Assembly (NCBI GenBank): GCA_022797215.1
Contig: JAAWKD010000001.1
Coordinates: 15,362 to 79,361, forward strand
Direction: 5' to 3'
Source: Clostridia bacterium
GTDB lineage: Bacteria > Bacillota > Clostridia > TANB77 > CAG-508
Length of the DNA stretch: 64,000 bases
This document shows positions 39,647 to 50,972 of this stretch, piece after piece. A model generated the notes under the pieces. That model was not told the DNA's origin. It did not search any database and worked only from the letters and a program-made list of their open reading frames with translations. The translations under genes were made by a program, and so were the position numbers. Position 1 is the stretch's first letter, and the number at the start of each line of letters is the position of its first letter.

Positions 39647-41035
39647 TTAAAATTTCACTTTTTCTGCAATCCAAGCTTGTAGTTCATCGATCTTCACTCT
39701 TACTTGTTCCATAGTATCTCTATCACGAACAGTTACTGTTTCATCTTCTAAAGTATCAAAATCAACAGTAACACAATAAGGAGTACCAATTTCATCTTCT
39801 CTTCTATAACGTTTTCCTATACTTCCTGCTTCATCATAATCACACATAAATTCTTTAGATAACTTATCATATACTTCTTCTGCTTTTTCACTTAATTTTT
39901 TAGAAAGTGGAAGCACTGCAACTTTATATGGTGCTAAGGCTGGATGTAAATGTAATACAATTCTTGTATCTCCTTCTGCAATTTCTTGTTCTTCATAACC
40001 ATTGCACATCATAGCTAAAAAGATTCTATCTACTCCAACTGCTGGCTCTACACAGTATGGTACATATCTCTCTCCTGTTTCTGGATCCAAATATGTTAAA
40101 TCCTCTTTTGAAGCTTCCATATGTCTTGACAAATCATAATCTGTTCTATCTGCAATTCCCCATAGCTCTCCCCAACCAAAAGGGAATAGAAATTCAATGT
40201 CTGTTGTTCCTTTACTATAGAAAGATAGTTCTTCTTTAGTATGTTCTCTTAATCTCAAGTTTTCTGGCTTTATTCCTAAATTAATAAGCCATTCTTTGCA
40301 GAAATTCTTCCAATACTCATACCATTCTAGATCTGTTCCTGGTTTACAGAAAAATTCCAACTCCATCTGTTCAAACTCTCTCGTTCTAAAAATGAAATTT
40401 CCTGGTGTAATTTCATTTCTAAAAGAACGCCCCATTTGACCAATTCCCATTGGCATTTTACTTCTAGTAGTTCTTAATACATTTTTAAAATCAACAAACA
40501 TTCCTTGTGCTGTTTCTGGTCTTAAGTATACTGTAGAAGTAGCGTCTTCTGTTACTCCCATAAAAGTTTTAAACATTAAATTGAACTTTCTAATATCTGT
40601 AAACTCTAATTTGCCACAATTAGGACAAGCTATTTTATTTTCTTTGATATACTCTACCAATTGTTCATTTGTCCAACCATCTAGTCCAGAAATGTCTTTT
40701 CCGTTTTGAAATCCCCATTCTTCAATTAGTTTGTCTGCCCTATGTCTTGTTTTACAAGATTTACAGTCAATAAGTGGGTCTGAGAAACCTCCTACATGTC
40801 CTGTAGTTACCCAAACTTGTGGATTCATCATAATAGCTGCATCAATTCCTACATTATACTTATTTTGCGCAATAAATTTTTTCCACCAAGCCTCTTTAAT
40901 ATTTTTTTTCAGTTCAGCTCCTATTGGACCATAGTCCCAAGAATTTGCTAAACCTCCATAAATTTCTGAGCCAGGATATACAAATCCTCTCGCTTTGCAT
41001 AGATTTACTAATTTTTCCATTGTTAAATCTGACAT
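39647..41035 (-). CDS. glyQS: Glycine--tRNA ligase (homodimeric class II type)
   Basis: 462 aa. [48 protein letters not shown]. Confidence 0.96.
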
Positions 41036-41061: not shown

Positions 41062-41285
41062 CTAGAAACAAAAAACTTTCATCTCTAGCTTTTTAAATAT
41101 AAGCTAGGGACGAAAGTTTATTTTCCGCGGTTCCACCCTATTTGATTAACACCTTAGGCTAATCCTCTTTCTCTTTTTATGCTCCAAAGCTCCCCATTTG
41201 GTAATTAAGGTTGGCTTTCACCTTTTCCAACTCTCTTTTTCTTAATTTTTCCAAACTTTTTCTTTTTCATCGCAATTTTTAATTG
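41062..41285 (-). promoter_or_regulatory. T-box riboswitch leader (glycine specifier, GGN) of glyQS
   Basis: The minus strand carries UUGCGAUGA (stem I K-turn), AGAGAG...GGUGAAAG, the T-box AAUAGGGUGGAACCGCGG (41125-41143) and a terminator at 41076-41117 plus a U-run. Confidence 0.88.
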
Positions 41286-41291
41286 TTTACT

Positions 41292-41320
41292 ATTCTACTC
41301 TTCTTTTTTCATTTTGTCAA
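41292..41320 (-). promoter_or_regulatory. Sigma-A promoter of the glyQS leader
   Basis: Minus strand TTGACA-17 nt-TAGAAT. Confidence 0.65.
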
Positions 41321-41331
41321 CCATTTATTAC

Positions 41332-41340
41332 TTATCCACA
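41332..41340 (+). promoter_or_regulatory. Perfect DnaA box TTATCCACA
   Basis: Exact 9-mer, 12 nt beyond the glyQS -35. A one-mismatch box TTATCCTCA lies at 41352-41360. Confidence 0.6.
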
Positions 41341-41603
41341 GTTTTTACATTTTATCCTCAACTTTTCCTTTTCGCTTGTGAATTTGTATTCTGCCTTTGC
41401 TTACTGTTTGTTATAAATCTGTAATCTTTTTGTCATAATCTTTTCACAAAGTTCACACTTTTATTACAATTTCATCTTATTTTCGACAACTTTCATTTCT
41501 TTTTATTACATTCTCATTACAATATTATTACATTTTGTCAACATGTGTTACATAATTGTTACGCCAAGTTTACAAAAAAATATATTTCATGTCTTGTGGA
41601 AAT

Positions 41604-41612
41604 TGTGGATAA
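41604..41612 (-). promoter_or_regulatory. Perfect DnaA box (TGTGGATAA on plus strand)
   Basis: Exact 9-mer. Flanked by near-boxes TGTGGAAAT (41595) and TGTGAACAA (41616). Confidence 0.6.
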
Positions 41613-41645
41613 CTTTGTGAACAACTGAAAACACGCCACTATTTC

Positions 41646-41654
41646 TGTGGATAA
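41646..41654 (-). promoter_or_regulatory. Perfect DnaA box (TGTGGATAA on plus strand)
   Basis: Exact 9-mer. Confidence 0.6.
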
Positions 41655-41712: not shown

Positions 41713-43965
41713 CTACCCACCTATACAGGTAAAGTCTTCCCATTTTATTCTTTTTATATTCAAACTACTTGATTCTCCTAGTTTTCCTGCCTCTCTTTCT
41801 TGTTCTAATATCTCATCAATTCTATTTTTCACTCCACTAATAGAACTATGTTGTAAATTCAAATAATCCTTTGAAAATTCAATTCCCTTTATATATTCTC
41901 CCATTTTCATATAAGTATATGCCATATATGCATAATGTCTTTGTGTCAATAGTTTTTCGTATACTACTAACATTTTATTTATAATATTAATAAGAACATC
42001 TTTCTGGACTCTTGAAGAACTCTCTGTTATATTTTTTACTTTCGCATCAAATGTAATCCACTCTATTCTAAAATTAACTTTTTTGCGTTCTTCTGTCACT
42101 TGAATTTCTTTATCTCTTAACCATTTTTCTTGTATTGCTTTTACAACAGTATGAGTGGTTTTTGTCTCAAAAGCAATATTGTCAATTGCTCTTCCTGCTA
42201 ATAATCCACTTCTAATTTGCCTTTGCTTTTCTTCTGGAATACTCCTTATCAAACGTTCTCTTTGGTATACCCTATTTCTTATTCTCTCTACTGCATTAAT
42301 ATTTCCTGTTTGTCCTGCTATTTGAGCATTACTAGCTTTCCCTTCTTCTATTAATCTTTCCACCTCTGGTCTTGAACAAAGCTGTAGTTTCCTTAATTTT
42401 AAAATAACCGCATATTCTGTAAGGCCTGAAATACATTTTAGTTTGTCTAAGCCTTCAAAGTTCCTTGCCATCTTTAAGAAAACTTGCTCTTCTCTTTGCT
42501 TATGCTCTATTTCTATTTGCTCAACATTTAACTCGCCTTCATCTATATCCATACAGAGCTGTTTTTCTTTTTCTGCCTTTCTCACTCTTGCTACTATAGT
42601 ATAATCTTCTAGATTCCCCATAATAGCAATTTGCATGTCTGTTCGGTAATCTAGCCATTCTATTACTTCTTCTCTACTAAAAATATTATAATCTATTAAA
42701 GCAACTCTTACTATATCCTCACTCAAACCTAATTTTTGTGCTATTTCTTCTACACTTGTCAAAGTTCCTGCTAACTTTAAAAATTGTTTTTCATCTTTTC
42801 TTTTTATAATTGGTATTGCTACTCTTTCTTGTTCCTGAAGTATTGGACCTGCGTTTTGAATAGCTCCATCCTCAACTACTGCATTTTTACTCTCTTTGCT
42901 TGTTTCTGGCATTTCTTCTTGTCTAATTTGTTCTATCACAGAAATATCATTTATCCCTGTTATTGTTACAAGTTCCTCATTTGACTTTTCTGGTAATAGC
43001 TTTATAATTTGTTGTCTGCTCAAAGCTCTCATATCATGTTTTTTCTGTTTTACAGAACCTGCATTTTTCAAACCAACTAATGTCGCAATTTCTGCTCCTG
43101 ATTTTCCTTGTGCTAATGCTATTCTAAAGGTTTGATTTCTTGCATCTTCTGATTTTCTAGCCTCCTCCTTTTGCCTTTCTCTCTCCTCTTGTTCTTTTTT
43201 GGCTTGTTCTAGTTTTGGCATTTCTTGTTGTCTAATTTGTTCTATCACAGAAATATCATTTATTCCTGTTATTGCTAAGAGTTCCTCATCTGACTTTTCT
43301 GGTAATAATGCAACAATCTCTTTTCTTCCTAAAAGTTTTCCCTTACTTTTCTTCACACTTACTGTATGTGGATATTGATATCCTAACGATGTTGCAATTT
43401 TTTCCATTGACAATCCCTGTGCTAGTAGGACTCTAAGCATTTGGTCCTTGGCATCTCTTTCTTCTTTTTTCGCTTCTACTCTGCCACGTCTTTCTTCTTT
43501 TAGCATAGCATTTCTTCTGTCTGATCTTTCTTTTCTATCTGCTTTTCTTCTTTGTATTCGCTCTTCTATTTCTTTTCTCATTCTTTCAATAGCATCTATT
43601 GTCCATTTGGACTGTTCTTGTATTTCTTCATTACTTTTTTGAGCCATTATTAATTCTCTAACTTGATCTCTCGACATAATTCCTTCTGTTTTTCTCATCC
43701 ACTTTACAGCCATCTCTGTTAAACCTGTCTCTTCCATTATGCTTTTTGTTTTCTCACCATTTTTGGCCATTTCTATAGCTCTTCTTCTATTAATTCTATC
43801 ACTTTCATTTTCTTGCTCTGCAGCCTGTTCTGCTGAATCAGCTAAAATAGAAGCAACCTTTTGTTGTATTGCTTCTGGGTCACCTTTCATTGTACCATAT
43901 AACTGATTTACTAATTTCATAATTTCTTGGGTTAATTGTTCTTCAGATTTTCTTGTACTCCCCAT
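41713..43965 (-). CDS. Tandem helix-turn-helix array protein (750 aa), paralog of 44451..46442
   Basis: About 10 HTH-like units, e.g. LLAQGLSMEKIATSLG and ITGINDISVIEQIRQ (twice). K/E/R linkers and a C-terminal TPR-like YAYMAYTYMKMGEYIKGIEF. Has RBS AAGGAG and its own promoter. Confidence 0.7.
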   Translation of the reverse strand: MGSTRKSEEQLTQEIMKLVNQLYGTMKGDPEAIQQKVASILADSAEQAAEQENESDRINRRRAIEMAKNGEKTKSIMEETGLTEMAVKWMRKTEGIMSRDQVRELIMAQKSNEEIQEQSKWTIDAIERMRKEIEERIQRRKADRKERSDRRNAMLKEERRGRVEAKKEERDAKDQMLRVLLAQGLSMEKIATSLGYQYPHTVSVKKSKGKLLGRKEIVALLPEKSDEELLAITGINDISVIEQIRQQEMPKLEQAKKEQEERERQKEEARKSEDARNQTFRIALAQGKSGAEIATLVGLKNAGSVKQKKHDMRALSRQQIIKLLPEKSNEELVTITGINDISVIEQIRQEEMPETSKESKNAVVEDGAIQNAGPILQEQERVAIPIIKRKDEKQFLKLAGTLTSVEEIAQKLGLSEDIVRVALIDYNIFSREEVIEWLDYRTDMQIAIMGNLEDYTIVARVRKAEKEKQLCMDIDEGELNVEQIEIEHKQREEQVFLKMARNFEGLDKLKCISGLTEYAVILKLRKLQLCSRPEVERLIEEGKASNAQIAGQTGNINAVERIRNRVYQRERLIRSIPEEKQRQIRSGLLAGRAIDNIAFETKTTHTVVKAIQEKWLRDKEIQVTEERKKVNFRIEWITFDAKVKNITESSSRVQKDVLINIINKMLVVYEKLLTQRHYAYMAYTYMKMGEYIKGIEFSKDYLNLQHSSISGVKNRIDEILEQEREAGKLGESSSLNIKRIKWEDFTCIGG

Positions 43966-44008
43966 ACATACTCCTTTTTTCTCGATTTCTCATTGCACAC
44001 TATGTCTC

Positions 44009-44037
44009 ATTATACCATATTATGTAAATTAATGCAA
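44009..44037 (-). promoter_or_regulatory. Sigma-A promoter (extended -10) of 41713..43965
   Basis: Minus strand TTGCAT-17 nt-(TGg)TATAAT. Confidence 0.6.
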
Positions 44038-44114
44038 ATTAAACTCATTCTCTACTATCATTTAATAAACTATAACAAATGTCTTAACAATTTGTTACAC
44101 TTTCCTACAAAAGA

Positions 44115-44141
44115 AAAAAAGACAGTTTGATTGTCTTTTTT
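44115..44141 (-). terminator. Intrinsic terminator after DUF1294 gene
   Basis: AAAAAAGACA-atcaaac-TGTCTTTTTT on the minus strand. Confidence 0.75.
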
Positions 44142-44148
44142 TCTATCA

Positions 44149-44436
44149 TCATAGTACAAAAGTAGCTATTACAATTAATATTTCACAAATTAAAATAACA
44201 GGAAATCCTATCACGAATTTAGCTTTTTGTGTTTTATGGTGAAAAACGTACATCCCTATAATTCCACCTATTCCTCCACCTAACAATACAAACAGCAATA
44301 AAGTATTTTCTGGGATTCTCCATCTTCCTTTTTTAGCTTTTCTTTTATCTAACCACATTACAAAAAAAGTAATTAAATTAATTATAATCAAATATATCAT
44401 AATATTTTGAATCGTAAAAATTTCTTCTATTTTCAT
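44149..44436 (-). CDS. DUF1294 small membrane protein
   Basis: WLDKRKAKKGRWRIPENTLLLFVLLGGGIGGIIGMYVFHHKTQKAKF is the DUF1294 signature. Confidence 0.85.
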   Translation of the reverse strand: MKIEEIFTIQNIMIYLIIINLITFFVMWLDKRKAKKGRWRIPENTLLLFVLLGGGIGGIIGMYVFHHKTQKAKFVIGFPVILICEILIVIATFVL

Positions 44437-44450
44437 CTTCTGACCTACCT

Positions 44451-46442
44451 TTATCCTATTTCAAGCTCTTTAAACGTTGTTCCTTTTTCTGTTAAACCTT
44501 TTTGTATTACTTCATTTATTTTTTGTTGTAAACCAAGTATACTAGGAGTTTCCAATCCTAGATGTTGCTCTCCTATTTCAATAGCTCTCTGATAGTCTCT
44601 TTCTTTAGCATATCCATAAGCTAAAAAAGCATAATCTTCTATAGTTAAAAAAGAAGAGAACTCACTAATTAACTTATCCATTCTATATCTTTGTGTTGCA
44701 TTCACTTGTCCTTCGTTTGCACTTTTCATTGCACTTCTTAATTTTATCATTTCTGTCCTATATTGTACTACTGTATGTGTTCTAGCATACTCTTGATTCC
44801 TCATTTCAGCTAAGATAGCTTCTACCACTTTTTTAGAAACCTTATTTTCGTGTGCAATAGCCCCAACCGCAGGAAATTTTCTTAGCTCACTCTGTATTTT
44901 TTCTACTAATATAGAAGATATACCTAACTTCGTTGCTAAGTTTTCCCCCTTTTGAGAACTCACTCCTTCTACTTTTTGTCCTTGATACGTAATCACTGGT
45001 GGAATTCTTTTTACCAATTTCTTTTGTGGAGTAGTTGGTAATTCTTCATCCTTCTTTTTGGCTTTCGCTCTTTGCTGATATATTGTCTTAGCCCCTTCTC
45101 TCCTCTTTTTGGCTTGTTCTATCTCTGCTCTAATTCTAGCTACTGTTTCTACATATACTCCTGTTCTTTCTGCCACTTCTTCATCTGTTACACCTTTTTC
45201 ATTCATTAAAATTTGTTTAATTGTACGCCAGTTAGCTATACCACATTTTTTAGCAAAATTATTAATCCAAGCTGATTGTAACCCTACCAATTCATGTATT
45301 TGTATATTTGAGATTCCCTGTTTCAGTAAATCTATTATTTTTGCTTCCTTTTCTGGTGATAATATAATCTCTCGGTTGTTTGTCCTTGGTCGCGTTTCAT
45401 TTGTAGTTTGCCTTTCTTCTAGTCTTTCTTTTATCTCTGCTATTGTTTCTGGGTATACTCCTGTTTTTGTAGCCCATTCTTCATCAGATAGATCTTCTAG
45501 TCCTGGTTGTCTCATCATTTGTACAATTTCTCTCACTGTACAAATTCCATTTTCTTTTGCAATTTTATCAATAGTTGGCGTCGATTTTCCACATCTTTTC
45601 GCTATCGCTGTATGTTTAATACCTTTTTTGGCTAAATCTATTATCATTGCAAATTCTTGAGCCTTTTGTCTTTCTCGTGCCTCTTTTTCCTTATCACTTT
45701 TAGATTTACTTTCTGTCTTTTCAAGTTCTTTCCTAATTCTCTCTATTGTTGCTGGGTAAACTCCTAACTTGGTTGCTAATCCCTCACTAGATAAATCCTT
45801 TGAGTCCTCTTGTTTTAACTCTTGTCTTATAACTTTTACACTAGCTATCCCATTTCTTCTAGCTAGCGAACTGATATATCCTGCTGTTCTCTTATACTGC
45901 TCAGCTATTTCTCCATGTGGAACTCCCTGTCTTGCTAATTCTAATATTTGAAGGCTAGTTTGTGAAAGTTCTCGTTTCTTTTTATCTTCTGGATTTTGTT
46001 TCTTAGTTTCTTCATTTCTTCTTGCATTCTCAAGTTCTTGCCTAATTCTCTCTATTGTTTCTGGATATACTCCTGTTTTTGCAGCCCATTCTTCATTCGA
46101 TATTGACTCTTCTCCTTGTTGCATACTTTCTCTTAGCATTCGCTTAATTTGTGTTACAGATAATATCCCCCTTCTTGCAAGGAATTTAGTAATAGTTGCC
46201 TTGTTTTTTCCTACCTGCCTCGCAATTTCAACTTGTGAATGTCCTTGTTTTGCTAGTTCTATAGTCTCTTTTTGTTTTTCATCTTTTAATTCTTTGAATA
46301 TTTTTAGTGCCATTCTAGCTTTAGCTTCAACTGCTTTGCGCCTTTCTTCTTCATTTCCCTTGAAAATTTCATATAATTGCCTTAATACATCTTCTAATTC
46401 TTTGGTAAGTTGATCTTCTGTTTTTCTACTTTCTTCTAGCAT
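44451..46442 (-). CDS. Tandem helix-turn-helix array protein (663 aa)
   Basis: Four ~100-aa repeats, each with LAKQG.S..EIA...G.....I..FA...GI plus WA.KTGVYPETIERIR.ELE, and a C-terminal TPR-like YAFLAYGYAKERDYQRAIEIG. Confidence 0.7.
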   Translation of the reverse strand: MLEESRKTEDQLTKELEDVLRQLYEIFKGNEEERRKAVEAKARMALKIFKELKDEKQKETIELAKQGHSQVEIARQVGKNKATITKFLARRGILSVTQIKRMLRESMQQGEESISNEEWAAKTGVYPETIERIRQELENARRNEETKKQNPEDKKKRELSQTSLQILELARQGVPHGEIAEQYKRTAGYISSLARRNGIASVKVIRQELKQEDSKDLSSEGLATKLGVYPATIERIRKELEKTESKSKSDKEKEARERQKAQEFAMIIDLAKKGIKHTAIAKRCGKSTPTIDKIAKENGICTVREIVQMMRQPGLEDLSDEEWATKTGVYPETIAEIKERLEERQTTNETRPRTNNREIILSPEKEAKIIDLLKQGISNIQIHELVGLQSAWINNFAKKCGIANWRTIKQILMNEKGVTDEEVAERTGVYVETVARIRAEIEQAKKRREGAKTIYQQRAKAKKKDEELPTTPQKKLVKRIPPVITYQGQKVEGVSSQKGENLATKLGISSILVEKIQSELRKFPAVGAIAHENKVSKKVVEAILAEMRNQEYARTHTVVQYRTEMIKLRSAMKSANEGQVNATQRYRMDKLISEFSSFLTIEDYAFLAYGYAKERDYQRAIEIGEQHLGLETPSILGLQQKINEVIQKGLTEKGTTFKELEIG

Positions 46443-46481: not shown

Positions 46482-46510
46482 ATTCTACCACAACTCATCT
46501 CTTTTTTCAA
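46482..46510 (-). promoter_or_regulatory. Sigma-A promoter (extended -10) of 44451..46442
   Basis: Minus strand TTGAAA-17 nt-(TGg)TAGAAT, immediately after the polC stop. Confidence 0.55.
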
Positions 46511-46520
46511 GAAAAACTCT

Positions 46521-49500
46521 TTATCCAAATAAGCTCATCTGGTTGCTTTGGCTCATTCCTTTTAGGCAACCTACTTTATCTAACAATTCTATAACTGACT
46601 TTCCTATCTTTGAACGAATTTTCATATCATCAATCGACATGAATTTTCCATCTTTTTTCGCCTCATCAATTCCTTCTGCTGCAACAGTTCCTAATCCTGG
46701 CACACTATTTAGTGGCGGTCTTATTTCTGTGTCTGATTCCATTTTGAATTTGGTTGCATGACTTTCATATAAGTCAATTGGTAAGAAAGTAATTCCTCTT
46801 TCATACATTTCCAATACCAATTCTAGAATTGCATACATATTCTTATCCTTTGTCGTTGCACTGTTTCCTTGTAACTCAATTTCTTTCATTTTGTTTTTTA
46901 CTTTTTCTACACCATAACACATGATATCACTATCAAACTCATCTGCACGAATGGTAAAATATGCTGTATAGTAGGCTGCTGGTCTATGTACTTTAAACCA
47001 AGCAATACGGAAAGCGTTTGTTACATATGCTGCTGCATGGGCTTTTGGGAACATGTACTTGATTTTCTTACAAGAACCAATATACCATTCTGGTATGTTG
47101 TATTCTCTCATCTCTGCTTCAAATTCTAACCACTTTTCTGGGTCTTTTGAGGCTTTTCCTTTACGTACAAACTCCATAATCTTGAAAGCTTTTTTAGGCG
47201 GTAGACCTTGTTTAATTAGATAAATCATAATATCATCTCTACAACCAATTGCCTCACTTAAAGTTACAATTCCAGAGTTTACCAACTCTTGTCCATTATT
47301 AAGCCATACGTCTGTACCATGTGAAAGTCCTGATATACTGATTAATTCACCAAAAGTAGTTGGTTTTGTATCTACTAACATTCCTCTTACAAATTTGGTT
47401 CCAAATTCAGGAATACCATAACTTCCTACTTCTGAATGGATTTGCTCTGGTGTTACCCCTAAGGCCTCTGTTGACCTAAAAATAGACATGGTTTCTTTAT
47501 CATCTAACGGTACTTTTGTTGGGTCAATTCCTGTAATATCAAACAACATTCTAATCATAGTCGGATCATCGTGTCCTAGAATATCTAGTTTTAGTAAGTT
47601 TTGGTCGATAGAGTGATAATCAAAATGTGTTGTTACAATATCAGAGTTCGGGTCATCTGCTGGGTGTTGTACTGGTGTAAATTCATAGATTTCTCTTCCC
47701 TTTGGCACTACAATAATTCCACCTGGATGCTGTCCTGTCGTTCTTTTAATACCTGTACAGCCTTGTGAAACTCTTAATACTTCTGCATTACTAACAGGAA
47801 CTCCTCTTTCTTCATAATATTTTTTTACATATCCAAAAGCAGTTTTATCTGCTACTGTACCAACTGTTCCTGCTTTAAAAGTAGTTCCTTTTCCAAAGAT
47901 AACTTCTGTATATTTATGTGCTTTTGCTTGATATTCTCCTGAGAAGTTCAAGTCAATATCAGGCTCTTTATCTCCATCAAATCCTAAGAAAGTCTCAAAT
48001 GGAATATCCATACCATCTTTGGTTAATTTATGTCCACATTTTGGACAGTCTTTATCTAGTAAGTCAAATCCGTTTTTTACTCCATAATCTGTAAAGTCTG
48101 AGTATTTACAGTTTGGACATCTATAATGTGGCGGAAGTGAATTTACTTCTGTAATACCTGTCATATTCGCTACAAAGGAAGAACCCACTGACCCTCTGGA
48201 ACCTACAATATATCCATCTTCATTTGATTTCCATACTAATTTTTGTGCAATAATGTACATTACTGAGAAGCCGTTAGATATAATGGAGTTTAATTCTTTA
48301 TCTAATCTTGCTTGTACTAATTCTGGTAGAGGGTCACCATATAGTTCATGTGCCTTACTATAAGCTATCTCTTTAATCGTTTCTTCACAGCCTTCAATAT
48401 ATGGTGGGCATTTTTCAGGTGAAATTGGGCTTATTTTTTCACACATATCTGCAATTTTATTAGTATTGGTTACAACTACTTCGTAAGCCTTTTCTTCTCC
48501 TAAATATTCAAATTCCTTTAGCATTTCTTCTGTGGTACGCAAATAAAGTGGTGCTTGCTCATCAGCATCATCATACCCTTGTCCTGCCATTAATATTCTA
48601 CGATAAATTTCATCTTGTGGGTCCATAAAATGCACATCACAAGTAGCTACTACTGGCTTTTGTAGTTTTTCTCCTAAAGCTACTATCTTTCGGTTAATAT
48701 CTTGCAATTCTTCTATGCTTGCTACTGTTTCATTACGAACCATAAACATATTGTTGCCAATTGGTTGAATTTCTAAATAGTCGTAATCACTAGCTATTTC
48801 TTCTAATTCTTCATCTGCTTTTCCTGCAATAATAGCTCTATATAACTCTCCTGCTTCACAGGCACTTCCCATCATTAAGCCTTCTGAATATTTTTTATAA
48901 ACAGATTTTAAAATACGTGGCTTTTTATAAAAATAATCTAAGTGTGAAGTAGATATCAATTTATATAAATTTCTAAGTCCTACATAATCTTTTGCTAGAA
49001 TAATGGCATGATAAGTTGGGAGTGATTTATAATCTGTTTTACCACTTAGCTTATCCATATCATCTAAAGTAATAATTCCTTTTTCCTTTAACATGCCTAA
49101 CATGACATTAAATACTTTCACAGTAGTATCTACATCATCTAATGCTCTATGTGCTACTTCTACTTTAATTCCTAACTTTTCTGCTATTAACCCTAGTTTA
49201 TATTTCTTATACTCTGGAAATAATGATTTTGCTAAACGTAATGTATCTAAATAGGTATTTCCTAATTGAAGACCTAATTCTGTACAATTATGCTTTAAAA
49301 ATCCAATATCAAAATCTGCATTATGTGCTACTAAAACACTGTCTCCCACAAATTCTAATACTTTTGGCAAAACTTCGTCTATTGTTGGAGCATTTTTCAC
49401 CATATCATCTGTAATATTAGTTACTTCTACCACTCTTTGTGGAATTGGTTTTTCAGGATTAACAAAGGTACAAAATTCATCAATTACTTGATGATTCTTT

Positions 49501-50972
49501 ACCTTCATAATTCCTATTTCTGTAATCTTCTCAGTTCTAAAGGATAGTCCTGTTGTTTCTAAATCTAGTACACAATAAGTAGCATCTTCTAGATTTTGTC
49601 CTTTTGAGAAAGATACACAAGATGCTTCATCTGGTGCTAAATATGCTTCTACACCATAAATTACTTTTAGATCTGGGTGGTCTTTTTCTAAATATTTATG
49701 TGCATCAGGAAAGGCTTGTACAACTCCATGGTCTGTAATAGCAATAGATTTCATGCCCCATTTTACGGCACGTTTTAATAAATCTTTACACGCAGTCATT
49801 CCGTCCATTTGGCTCATTTGAGTATGCATATGTAATTCCACTCTTTTAACAGGTGCTTCATCTTTTCTAGATTCTTTTTTTAGTCCTGTGGACTCAAGAA
49901 TGGTGTTAGAAATCACCCCTAATTCTTTTGAAAACGGATCAAACTGTGCAGTTCCATCTACTTTTACACCTTTAGCCCCTTTTAGTCTTTTCATCACACC
50001 ATCAAATTTATCTGCTTCTATAAAGGCTTTGCAAGTAATGGTACTAGTGCCATCATATAAATCAAACATGACTAAAAACTTGCCTGACTTTAACTCTCTA
50101 CTGCTAGGACTTTCGTCATGTCTCATAATTTCACCATCTAATAAGACATTTCCACTATCTACGGATAAATCAACAATTTTTGCTAAGTCTCCTTTTAGCT
50201 TCATACTTCTTCCATGAATCATTGGAGAGACTTCTTCTGGTTCTTCTGGAGGTGGTGGTGCTTCCCAAGGTGCTCCTGCATCAATTGGTGGTACTCCATC
50301 AGTTCCTACTGGTGGCATTTCTTGAGTTTGCGCTTTCTTTGTTTCTTGTTTTTCTTGCGCTTGCTCTAAAGCTTCTTTTTGCGATAATAGAATAGCTTGC
50401 TTTTCTAGTTCTCTTGCATGTTCTTGATATCGCTCTAACATTTCTTGAGTTACTTCTTCTTGAAAAACTACTACATAGTTTTTATGATATAAATCCTTTA
50501 ACTTTTGTGCCAATATTTTATCAAAACTTCTCGCCTCTAATACATTCTTTCCTTTCATAGCCATAACTACTATAATTCTATTATTTTCAATCTGTATACT
50601 GCTATTCTTTAGCAATGCTTTGGTAAGAGGATGTTTGTATGCCATATATTCTACAATATCTTGCCATTGTGTTTGTATTTTTGCATCTATATGATTTTCG
50701 CTTTCTTCTTTTTGTGCTTCTTTACCTTCTTCTATATTCTTTGGCTCTTCTATTTTAATTTCAACATTCTTGAAATTAAAACGTTTTTCTAGGTATTTTT
50801 CAAAGTCTATTAGGTCTTTGATTAAAATAGAAGAAGTTGCTAGTAGCTTTAGTTCCAATGTATTGGACTTTTTATAAATATTGACACATGCAACTTTAGC
50901 TTCGCTTAATGCGAAGCTATTAAAATCAAAATCTTTAAATACTTCTTTGACTGTTTTTAGCTTTTCTTCCAT
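46521..50972 (-). CDS. polC: DNA polymerase III alpha subunit, PolC type
   Basis: 1483 aa. PHP domain (HMHTQMSQMDG), inserted DEDDh exonuclease (VLDLETTGL...HNADFD...AHRALDD), Zn-finger CPNC...CPKC, and polymerase core. Confidence 0.98.
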   Translation of the reverse strand: MEEKLKTVKEVFKDFDFNSFALSEAKVACVNIYKKSNTLELKLLATSSILIKDLIDFEKYLEKRFNFKNVEIKIEEPKNIEEGKEAQKEESENHIDAKIQTQWQDIVEYMAYKHPLTKALLKNSSIQIENNRIIVVMAMKGKNVLEARSFDKILAQKLKDLYHKNYVVVFQEEVTQEMLERYQEHARELEKQAILLSQKEALEQAQEKQETKKAQTQEMPPVGTDGVPPIDAGAPWEAPPPPEEPEEVSPMIHGRSMKLKGDLAKIVDLSVDSGNVLLDGEIMRHDESPSSRELKSGKFLVMFDLYDGTSTITCKAFIEADKFDGVMKRLKGAKGVKVDGTAQFDPFSKELGVISNTILESTGLKKESRKDEAPVKRVELHMHTQMSQMDGMTACKDLLKRAVKWGMKSIAITDHGVVQAFPDAHKYLEKDHPDLKVIYGVEAYLAPDEASCVSFSKGQNLEDATYCVLDLETTGLSFRTEKITEIGIMKVKNHQVIDEFCTFVNPEKPIPQRVVEVTNITDDMVKNAPTIDEVLPKVLEFVGDSVLVAHNADFDIGFLKHNCTELGLQLGNTYLDTLRLAKSLFPEYKKYKLGLIAEKLGIKVEVAHRALDDVDTTVKVFNVMLGMLKEKGIITLDDMDKLSGKTDYKSLPTYHAIILAKDYVGLRNLYKLISTSHLDYFYKKPRILKSVYKKYSEGLMMGSACEAGELYRAIIAGKADEELEEIASDYDYLEIQPIGNNMFMVRNETVASIEELQDINRKIVALGEKLQKPVVATCDVHFMDPQDEIYRRILMAGQGYDDADEQAPLYLRTTEEMLKEFEYLGEEKAYEVVVTNTNKIADMCEKISPISPEKCPPYIEGCEETIKEIAYSKAHELYGDPLPELVQARLDKELNSIISNGFSVMYIIAQKLVWKSNEDGYIVGSRGSVGSSFVANMTGITEVNSLPPHYRCPNCKYSDFTDYGVKNGFDLLDKDCPKCGHKLTKDGMDIPFETFLGFDGDKEPDIDLNFSGEYQAKAHKYTEVIFGKGTTFKAGTVGTVADKTAFGYVKKYYEERGVPVSNAEVLRVSQGCTGIKRTTGQHPGGIIVVPKGREIYEFTPVQHPADDPNSDIVTTHFDYHSIDQNLLKLDILGHDDPTMIRMLFDITGIDPTKVPLDDKETMSIFRSTEALGVTPEQIHSEVGSYGIPEFGTKFVRGMLVDTKPTTFGELISISGLSHGTDVWLNNGQELVNSGIVTLSEAIGCRDDIMIYLIKQGLPPKKAFKIMEFVRKGKASKDPEKWLEFEAEMREYNIPEWYIGSCKKIKYMFPKAHAAAYVTNAFRIAWFKVHRPAAYYTAYFTIRADEFDSDIMCYGVEKVKNKMKEIELQGNSATTKDKNMYAILELVLEMYERGITFLPIDLYESHATKFKMESDTEIRPPLNSVPGLGTVAAEGIDEAKKDGKFMSIDDMKIRSKIGKSVIELLDKVGCLKGMSQSNQMSLFG

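Follow-up and report, generated by a model that had tools for sequence, protein, structure and literature searches.

Bacterial helix-turn-helix (HTH) proteins usually contain one or two HTHs and achieve multivalency through oligomers. Cbp1, the CRISPR (clustered regularly interspaced short palindromic repeats) DNA repeat-binding protein of Sulfolobales (PDB 2lvs), contains about three HTHs; the eukaryotic tandem arrays, such as the psq repeats of Pipsqueak, the R1R2R3 repeats of Myb and the double homeodomain of DUX4, carry several HTHs per chain that occupy adjacent DNA sites; and in paired domains, two linked subdomains are both basic and both contact DNA. The RRNPP regulators combine one Xre-type HTH with a large peptide-binding domain of multiple tetratricopeptide repeats (TPRs). 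Here we analyze two neighboring genes, denoted A and B, in a 64,000-nucleotide stretch of the genome of a Clostridia bacterium (assembly GCA_022797215.1, contig JAAWKD010000001.1, positions 15,362 to 79,361; hereafter, the window). The products of these genes belong to a previously undescribed, lineage-restricted family in which a familiar domain is built into an unusual architecture, and for which the simultaneous binding of multiple DNA sites appears plausible.

Comparison with the known systems reveals partial similarities only. Like Cbp1, A and B are single chains of linked tandem HTH_23-like units; Cbp1, which binds repeated DNA, is also the natural protein in the PDB whose sequence the repeat profile matches best (E 1.6e-8, two stretches). 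By local fold, Cbp1 and the Pax paired domains come closest, all with E>0.01; Cbp1 has the highest probability (0.85) but is not significant (E 0.67). However, Cbp1 is a small archaeal protein (105 residues in the solved chain and 135 positions in the NCBIfam model) that has no counterpart of the second half-module, of the charged helical spacers or of the family domains at the N- and C-termini of A and B; protein A scores 18 bits against the equivalog model NF040595 (HTH_Cbp1), which calls for at least 140 bits. The paired-type domains (PAI and RED of Pax, and the N-termini of the Tc1/mariner, Sleeping Beauty and IS630 transposases) likewise consist of two linked three-helix HTH subdomains within ~75-130 amino acids (aa), but the matches are weak (PAX, E 0.008; the structures 6pax, 1k78 and 1pdn; the PAI subdomain of Sleeping Beauty; five stretches for the IS630 model), and in A and B the second half is neutral to acidic, the unit is repeated 4-10 times, and a transposase catalytic domain is missing. 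The PAX match (PF00292) is limited to 16.5 bits over profile positions 18-56, compared to the expected 22 bits or more over 125 residues; the match to the IS630 transposase model (NF033545), for which at least 100 bits and a DDE domain are expected, amounts to 37.1 bits, with the N-terminal HTH (profile positions 4-48) hit five times and no catalytic region. A structure of the DUX4 double homeodomain and a protein labeled 'HTH psq-type' from a virus are also among the weak fold matches, but the eukaryotic arrays consist of 2-4 units with short linkers and share with A and B neither sequence relationship nor flanking domains. The RRNPP regulators of Firmicutes (PlcR, PrgX, Rap/NprR) resemble A and B in joining an HTH to a TPR-like C-terminal element, and one family member yields a weak PrgX_C_TPR match (E 0.004); in contrast to these regulators, A and B have numerous units of the HTH_23 type but only one TPR-like motif. 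Finally, uncharacterized viral proteins in BFVD (A0A141HSI3, Q2XUW5 and M5ABU9 of Bacillus phage PM1) are, like A and B, long chains of repeated HTH units. These are the only structure-library matches at E<=1e-3, with 322-543 aligned columns and very low TM-scores (0.08-0.18).

The repeat organization of both proteins was originally noticed in a first-pass annotation of the window, which described protein A as four ~100-aa repeats, each pairing two HTH-like units, A and B, and assigned about 10 such units to protein B. All eight quoted peptides are present in protein A, unit A at residues 63, 169, 270 and 372, and unit B at residues 119, 222, 323 and 423; the similarity between repeat 1 and the other three is well above chance (Table 1), and the four copies are also apparent in the DNA of gene A, with a period of 300-309 nucleotides (nt) and 64-83% identity. 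A hidden Markov model (HMM) of the repeat, iterated over the family, converged on a two-part module of 75 aa with the consensus KIIELAKNGKSVEEIAEELGYSESTVRLKLRKEGIYS-REEVIELLKEGKSDEEIAEEGNVNIEAVERIREEIEER, which was detected about 190-205 times across 56 proteins. Protein A contains four full modules followed by degenerate units, of which residues 492-522 match the repeat HMM (i-E 8e-4) and residues 526-555 an Rrf2-type HTH (E 6.5e-4), the region 494-555 being helical in the structural model. Protein B contains five full modules (i-E 1e-19 to 1e-25 with the family repeat HMM) and then a half module, that is, ~11 three-helix units, close to the original count. The two proteins are indeed paralogous, with BLASTP matches between both their N-terminal segments and their C-terminal domains (Table 1); the N-terminal HMM agrees on the shared segment, which forms a conserved helix in the family, and within the window the N- and C-terminal HMMs match only A and B. 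The C-terminal domain had been described as a pair of TPR-like helices. The domain itself is shared, as proposed, but its TPR character is weak: a single motif is present, TPR_7 yields 15.9 bits where 27.9 are required, none of the Pfam TPR families attains its cut-off, at which three or more motifs would be expected, and the high total scores against engineered consensus TPR proteins reflect one query motif aligned with many target copies.

The two halves of the module differ markedly. Unit A is, judging by its profile scores and composition, a true HTH of the HTH_23 type. Against HTH_23 (PF13384, cut-off 24.6 bits), protein A scores 71.6 bits over five stretches (E 3.6e-20) and protein B 29.6 bits (E 5.7e-7); the unit-A consensus of the family scores 31.5 bits, and 25 of the 41 family members match. 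Unit A reaches or exceeds the Pfam cut-offs for HTH_23, HTH_28, Sigma70_r4_2 and GerE. The combination of regions 2 and 4 that defines the Sigma-70 family was not found (Sigma70_r4_2, 19.2 against 25.7 bits; TIGR02937, 17.9 against 42.9; no region 2). By contrast, unit B, when scanned alone, gave only sub-threshold matches to HTH families (Trp_repressor, 17.8 bits against 27; DUF433, 16.3 against 23.6; Put_DNA-bind_N, 16.5 against 27), and the fourth unit B of the array scores 18.8 bits with HTH_23, below the cut-off. In the full-length scan, HTH_Crp_2 barely reaches its cut-off (27.7 against 27 bits), with the best stretch on unit B1, and the PDB matches of unit B are to HTHs of the LuxR/NarL type, with E of 1e-4 to 1e-2. 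The description of A and B as consisting almost entirely of tandem HTH modules thus holds for arrays of HTH-type modules but not for each unit, given that unit A alone scores as an HTH.

The AlphaFold2 models are all-helical, with a predicted local distance difference test (pLDDT) score of 75.9 and a predicted template modeling score (pTM) of 0.27 for A, and values of 79.7 and 0.47 for B. Each module is modeled as 3+3 short helices with pLDDT of 80-90, that is, as three-helix bundles rather than the coiled coil that had been named as an outcome that would refute the HTH interpretation. The last helix of some modules extends into the next module (residues 230-272 of A, and 123-182 and 238-285 of B). 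In B, these predicted inter-module helices span 60 and 48 residues, and their cores are highly charged (65% charged and 12% hydrophobic residues at 137-176; 60% and 3%, respectively, at 250-279), so that their composition and predicted helicity resemble those of ER/K single alpha-helices, which are long E/K/R-rich helices with opposite charges paired at i/i+4, hardly any hydrophobic residues and stability as monomers. In A, one linker forms a continuous helix (230-272) whereas the others, including 149-158 and 347-359, are modeled at low confidence.

We tentatively propose, with a rough probability of 0.45, that A and B are cytoplasmic, multivalent DNA binders with an architectural, bridging or multi-operator function. 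Under this hypothesis, each of the basic unit-A HTHs would read a short DNA site, one chain would engage 4-5 sites (up to about 10 in some relatives), the charged helical spacers would set the distances between the sites, and the terminal domains would mediate self-association or binding of a partner. The case for DNA binding includes the scores of unit A above the HTH cut-off, its net positive charge (+2 to +5) and the conserved lysine and arginine positions in its third helix. The genes appear to be real and functional, considering that the ratio of non-synonymous to synonymous substitution rates (dN/dS) is 0.20-0.45, the modules are more conserved than the linkers, and the promoters and the gene order are conserved as well. 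The gene that separates A from B encodes a small DUF1294 membrane protein, and in other bacteria DUF1294 is fused to the nucleic-acid-binding cold-shock domain (PMC7404187); such fusions are compatible with a nucleic-acid-related partnership and, along with the gene order, are all that suggests a link of the array proteins to DUF1294.

Several observations weigh against multi-site DNA binding. Unit B, the other half of each module, is neutral to acidic (net charge 0 to -5), its three-helix shape is visible solely in the AlphaFold2 models, and, together with the sub-threshold scores, it is only HTH-like and not established as an HTH. The low pTM values imply that the arrangement of the modules and the overall shape of the proteins are not predicted. 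The search for DNA target sites revealed no candidate array: the motif TTACATAAT, present in the B promoter and again downstream of B, is not enriched (3 copies against 2.55 expected) and was rejected as a shared operator. Moreover, both genes diverge rapidly, which would be unusual for nucleoid proteins. In the related loci (designated L), PolC is 93-99.7% identical to the window protein, glycyl-tRNA synthetase (GlyRS, encoded by glyQS) about 96% (81% in L009), the DUF1294 protein 92-95% and a MurJ-like protein 86-90%, compared to 55-57% for B (43-45% in L005) and 31-38% for A. This divergence is unlike a retargeting of DNA specificity because the recognition helix is no more variable than its scaffold: among the B orthologues, the conservation of the unit-A third helix is 0.78, within the range of the modules as a whole (0.66-0.82, against 0.53-0.64 for the linkers; the tails are less conserved as well), so a hypervariable recognition helix akin to those of zinc fingers or transcription activator-like effectors was rejected. 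Furthermore, gene A is absent from five related loci in which the DUF1294 gene is retained, and in a strain with 97.8% nucleotide identity (L010:8487-9504) ~1 kb of gene A, corresponding to window positions 45381-46389, or roughly repeats 1-3, is deleted and a frameshift is present, leaving open reading frames (ORFs) of 193 and 99 aa. The 193-aa fragment is found on four contigs from several sources and thus represents a circulating allele.

The estimated substitution rates (Nei-Gojobori method) put this divergence in perspective. The synonymous rates (dS) of B and of its neighbors are alike, 0.6-1.1, whereas the non-synonymous rate (dN) is 0.17-0.45 for B and mostly 0.002-0.08 for the neighbors; accordingly, dN/dS is 0.20-0.42 for B, 0.30-0.44 for A and 0.005-0.09 for the neighboring genes, and the non-synonymous rate of the array genes is 10-25-fold that of the genes around them. 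Because these ratios are below 1 yet far above those of the neighbors, A and B evolve under purifying but weak selection. Xenologous replacement of B from a distant lineage is less likely, with dS of 0.86-1.14 only slightly above that of the flanks (0.57-1.0), and the low identity of B more likely resulted from fast divergence in place. For A in L001 and L005, dS is 1.33-1.37, close to saturation, so that either process may account for the low identity. Whole repeats have been gained or lost among orthologues, the number of repeats changing by recombination between them; for example, repeat 3 of B is missing from P0016-P0018. Genes A and B are accessory rather than core genes. A role in core nucleoid organization fits poorly with the high non-synonymous rate and with the fate of A, which is missing from five loci and disrupted in a near-identical strain.

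An unlikely alternative, though the most probable of those considered, is that A and B are helical-repeat scaffolds for protein-protein interactions or RNA binding in which the HTH signal is an evolutionary remnant. The acidic character and the sub-threshold HTH scores of unit B are consistent with such a role, as is the greater conservation of its third helix (AV..IR.E): across 205 repeats, the entropy of this helix is 2.40, compared to 2.82 for the third helix of unit A, suggesting a common ligand or a structural function. The TPR-like C-terminal motif is an element of a protein-binding type, and among the matches of the repeat profile are de novo designs of helical repeat proteins with solenoid packing (8vd6, E 1e-24, and 8cwy). 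However, 8vd6 is artificial and not a homologue, AlphaFold2 yields no confident packing between modules (pTM 0.27 for A), the proteins as a whole are basic (pI 8.6-9.4), and unit A retains a basic third helix along with its scores at or above the cut-offs of four HTH families.

Still less probable, in our assessment, is that A and B comprise a conflict-related accessory system, either derived from DNA-binding modules of mobile elements (transposases, invertases or phages) or directed against such elements, perhaps as a decoy or through binding to the DNA of invaders. The excess of non-synonymous substitutions over the neighboring genes, the variable number of repeats, and the patchy presence of A along with its circulating disrupted allele would be accounted for by such a system; in addition, HTHs similar to unit A are present in IS630 and ISL3 transposases, resolvases/invertases and TnsD, and the structure-library matches at E<=1e-3 are uncharacterized viral multi-HTH proteins only. 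Against this origin or function, the locus holds a fixed position between housekeeping genes (polC, glyQS) in different genera and contains no integrase or transposase; PADLOC and the specific PHROG families are blank; relatives are absent from the viral contigs, phage records and plasmids searched; and, as shown above, dN/dS stays under 1 and no hypervariability is seen in the recognition helix. Fast evolution and the dispensability of A leave room for either a conflict role or a scaffold function unrelated to DNA, although positive evidence was found for neither.

As for multivalent DNA binding itself, a more specific version, to which we assign a low probability, is that A and B represent a new class of bacterial molecular rulers that organize DNA. 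The rigid ER/K helices would space the basic HTH heads at fixed distances of 4.5-9 nm, so that the protein reads periodic sites or bridges DNA; membrane attachment of the complex would be provided by the co-transcribed DUF1294 protein, perhaps in relation to the replication genes next door; and the number and spacing of the heads would evolve rapidly by recombination between repeats.

It is improbable that A and B are ordinary local regulators of DUF1294, glyQS or their own genes in which the HTHs have been duplicated. In favor of this reading, the array genes keep their place next to DUF1294, A probably shares a transcript with it, as only 14 nt separate the stop codon of A from the DUF1294 start, and both array-gene promoters are conserved. 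Nevertheless, DUF1294 remains without A in five loci, and the distant locus L013 lacks B; glyQS is already served by a promoter and a T-box leader of its own; a repeated operator motif was not found in the promoters; and at least 10 modules and 650-1100 residues far exceed the needs of a local repressor. The possibility that A and B are decaying, functionless repeat-rich sequence, which the disruption of A in a close strain, its absence from several relatives and a dN/dS well above that of the neighbors might bring to mind, is highly improbable in view of the long intact ORFs in many lineages, dN/dS of 0.2-0.45, modules more conserved than linkers, conserved promoters and ribosome-binding sites, and 36 family clusters at E<=1e-30.

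The family is narrow but clearly extends beyond a single strain. A word-indexed search of 5.8 billion proteins retrieved 4 relatives of A and 13 of B, for which the sole source name is 'hypothetical protein [Clostridia bacterium]', and an exhaustive profile search of 1.84 billion representatives retrieved 56 clusters at E<=1e-10, of which 36 reach E<=1e-30. Conservation outside the strain, a point on which the first-pass annotation had made its claim depend, is therefore apparent in other uncultured Clostridia. Among the ~45 top-ranked clusters, nearly all combine HTH modules, of which the first repeat HMM counted up to 7, with the C-terminal domain, and the full-length members also carry the N-terminal motif; the 1115-aa member in L013 has about 10 modules. 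When an alignment of 41 sequences was used as the query for homologues, only A-type proteins already known were retrieved. Among the 185,579 GTDB species representatives, relatives of B were found in three metagenome-assembled genomes (MAGs) of uncultured Clostridia only, in a search bounded by the peptide patterns used.

As had been surmised, no characterized family covers this architecture: Pfam, NCBIfam, PHROGs and PADLOC yielded generic HTH matches only, those to PADLOC defense systems and PHROG families being confined to short HTH segments, none of them specific. Foldseek detected no PDB match at E<1e-3 for either model, and we found nothing in the literature on bacterial tandem-HTH arrays that describes this family. 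A phage, plasmid or defense origin was rejected, as tblastn searches of phage and plasmid records and the search of viral contigs gave no relatives. The single chain of 10 to about 20 HTH-type units, with apparently rigid charged helices in between, is encoded by a syntenic chromosomal gene that evolves an order of magnitude faster than its neighbors and differs in repeat number between strains. If DNA binding is confirmed, these proteins would be a natural case of covalent multivalency with built-in spacing, relevant to nucleoid architecture and to the design of programmable DNA binders; the significance is tempered by the restriction to a few uncultured gut Clostridia and by the thoroughly familiar domain.

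Three further observations pertain to the repeats and the family. The top sequence match of the repeat profile in PDB, 8vd6 ('CAP repeat'), is a de novo ProteinGenerator design (PMC12339374) and was rejected as a solved relative, as were the designed proteins 8cwy and 8cws and the consensus TPR proteins; its 33-aa unit, LIGRREVRELIEEGKTAEEIAEILGLSVDEIKE, matches unit B at E 1.3e-24, and apparently the generative model arrived at an HTH-like repeat idiom that also exists in nature. Also retrieved by the search of representatives, the metagenomic proteins P0063 (740 aa, about 11 copies of a 45-aa HTH repeat) and P0067 (1557 aa) are long arrays of single HTHs that differ from A and B in lacking the two-part module and the terminal domains of the family, suggesting that HTH arrays may be more widespread than annotation indicates. 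Over half of the family clusters (P0003, P0021-P0031, P0034-P0040, P0053-P0056) possess an acidic tail ending in arginine (..GDxGDEHSGR, ..SEDER, ..NEYER, ..EMEER), which may be a conserved C-terminal signal; A and B of the window lack such a tail.

The ORF positions originally reported for A and B are exact, and both genes, like the one between them, are on the minus strand (Table 1). The 95-aa ORF flanked by A and B, downstream of polC, is a DUF1294 protein, as predicted (PF06961, 97.4 bits against a cut-off of 25, E 5.7e-28, model positions 1-55 of 55); among the few papers retrieved that mention DUF1294, none gives it a function. The association of the array genes with polC and DUF1294 is real in the sense of conserved gene order: polC, [A], DUF1294, B, glyQS and the murJ-like gene follow one another in the related loci, A being optional, and an array gene is chromosomally fixed after polC, immediately upstream or downstream of the DUF1294 gene. 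In L013, which comes from a distant genome (PolC, GlyRS and DUF1294 are 76%, 77% and 79% identical to the window proteins, respectively), polC is followed by the gene for the 1115-aa array protein, DUF1294 and, where B would sit, a gene for a protein with a BclA_C domain. Because this order is kept in L013, the association of polC, an array gene and DUF1294 predates the A/B duplication. The protein in the position of B (L013:12181-12702, between DUF1294 and glyQS) consists of 173 aa and contains a BclA C-terminal domain of the exosporium type.

Table 1. Coordinates of the array genes, their parts and the adjacent features (window positions)
Feature	Position	Strand	Details
polC	46521..50972	minus	1483 aa; window copy intact
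Promoter-like site of gene A	46482..46510	minus	TTGAAA-17-TAGAAT, extended -10 TG (TGgTAGAAT); conserved in L001, L010
Gene A, HTH-array protein	44451..46442	minus	663 aa; pI 9.4
A, N-terminal segment, residues 2-45	46308..46439	minus	TE[ED]QLT.[ED]L...LY...G, common to the family; BLASTP A vs B E 8e-9
A, repeat 1, residues 55-146	46005..46280	minus	basic HTH (unit A) and three-helix unit B
A, repeat 2, residues 161-248	45699..45962	minus	phmmer i-E 2.6e-15 vs repeat 1
A, repeat 3, residues 262-349	45396..45659	minus	phmmer i-E 5e-20 vs repeat 1
A, repeat 4, residues 364-449	45096..45353	minus	phmmer i-E 6.7e-15 vs repeat 1
A, degenerate HTH-like units, residues 492-555	44778..44969	minus	one unit-B-like, one further HTH-like
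A, C-terminal family domain, residues 555-648	44499..44780	minus	one TPR-like motif (..DYAFLAYGYAK..Y..AIE.GE..L.L..); BLASTP A vs B E 2e-12
DUF1294 small membrane protein gene	44149..44436	minus	95 aa
Putative terminator after DUF1294	44111..44140	minus	weak hairpin and T-run, read from the sequence; terminator scan called 0
Promoter-like site of gene B	44009..44038	minus	TTTGCA-18-TATAAT, extended -10 TG (TGgTATAAT)
Gene B, HTH-array protein	41713..43965	minus	750 aa; pI 8.6
B, repeat 1, residues 63-136	43558..43779	minus	family repeat HMM i-E 2.8e-25
B, charged helical spacer, residues 123-182	43420..43599	minus	predicted 60-residue helix between repeats 1 and 2; ER/K-type
B, repeat 2, residues 180-249	43219..43428	minus	i-E 4.8e-19; DNA repeat D1
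B, repeat 3, residues 280-352	42910..43128	minus	i-E 2.7e-20; DNA repeat D1, 309-nt period
B, repeat 4, residues 394-468	42562..42786	minus	i-E 3.3e-21
B, repeat 5, residues 496-568	42262..42480	minus	i-E 2.3e-19
B, C-terminal family domain, residues 626-723	41797..42090	minus	includes TPR-like motif
Glycyl-tRNA synthetase gene	39647..41035	minus	462 aa

Both array genes had been credited with promoters of their own, and the two sites (Table 1) are kept in relatives; the -10 region of B, TTTACATAATrTGkTATAAT, is almost invariant in seven loci, and the ribosome-binding sites of the array genes are conserved like the promoters. At the place of the putative terminator, the relatives also have hairpins and T-runs after DUF1294, of differing sequence. 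The position of the genes between polC and a DnaA-box cluster was correctly noted: the only three perfect DnaA boxes of the window (TTATCCACA, at 41332+, 41604- and 41646-), with several near-boxes alongside, lie in the intergenic region between B and glyQS, and in seven loci the boxes, along with much of this 430-bp region, do not vary (mean column identity, 83%). The stretch 41332-41654 looks like a conserved DnaA-box cluster, but there is no evident link to the array genes, and two boxes are still present in L013, which lacks B. An origin of replication (oriC) was ruled out, as no GC-skew switch occurs there. Between the boxes, at 41461-41532 (minus strand), three exact copies of TGTAATAA are found within 72 bp; this motif is over-represented throughout the window (16 copies against 7.9 expected).

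Upstream of glyQS, a full-length T-box leader (41103-41279, minus strand; 75.7 bits, E 1.9e-16) is preceded by a promoter, TTGACA-17-TAGAAT, at 41320..41292. The default Rfam scan of the window, which reported only a tRNA, missed this leader because its score is below the Rfam gathering score of 93. No CRISPR array was found near the locus.

Two minor features of the region complete the description. In the polC genes of three or more related MAGs of species level, assembled independently, there is a 1-nt insertion relative to the window (GCT-TTAGGA -> GCTATTCGGA) at codon ~766 (~7215-7265 in L004, and the same site in L003, L007, L008 and L009), outside a homopolymer, which splits this essential gene into ORFs of 778 and 701 aa; possible explanations for the insertion are programmed +1 frameshifting, a PolC that is truly split, and an error common to the assemblies. 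The strongest strand asymmetry of the window is found at 42001-46000 (GC skew of -0.29 to -0.34 and AT skew of -0.28 to -0.38) and coincides with the array genes, whose products are rich in glutamate, lysine and arginine and whose codons are probably purine-rich.

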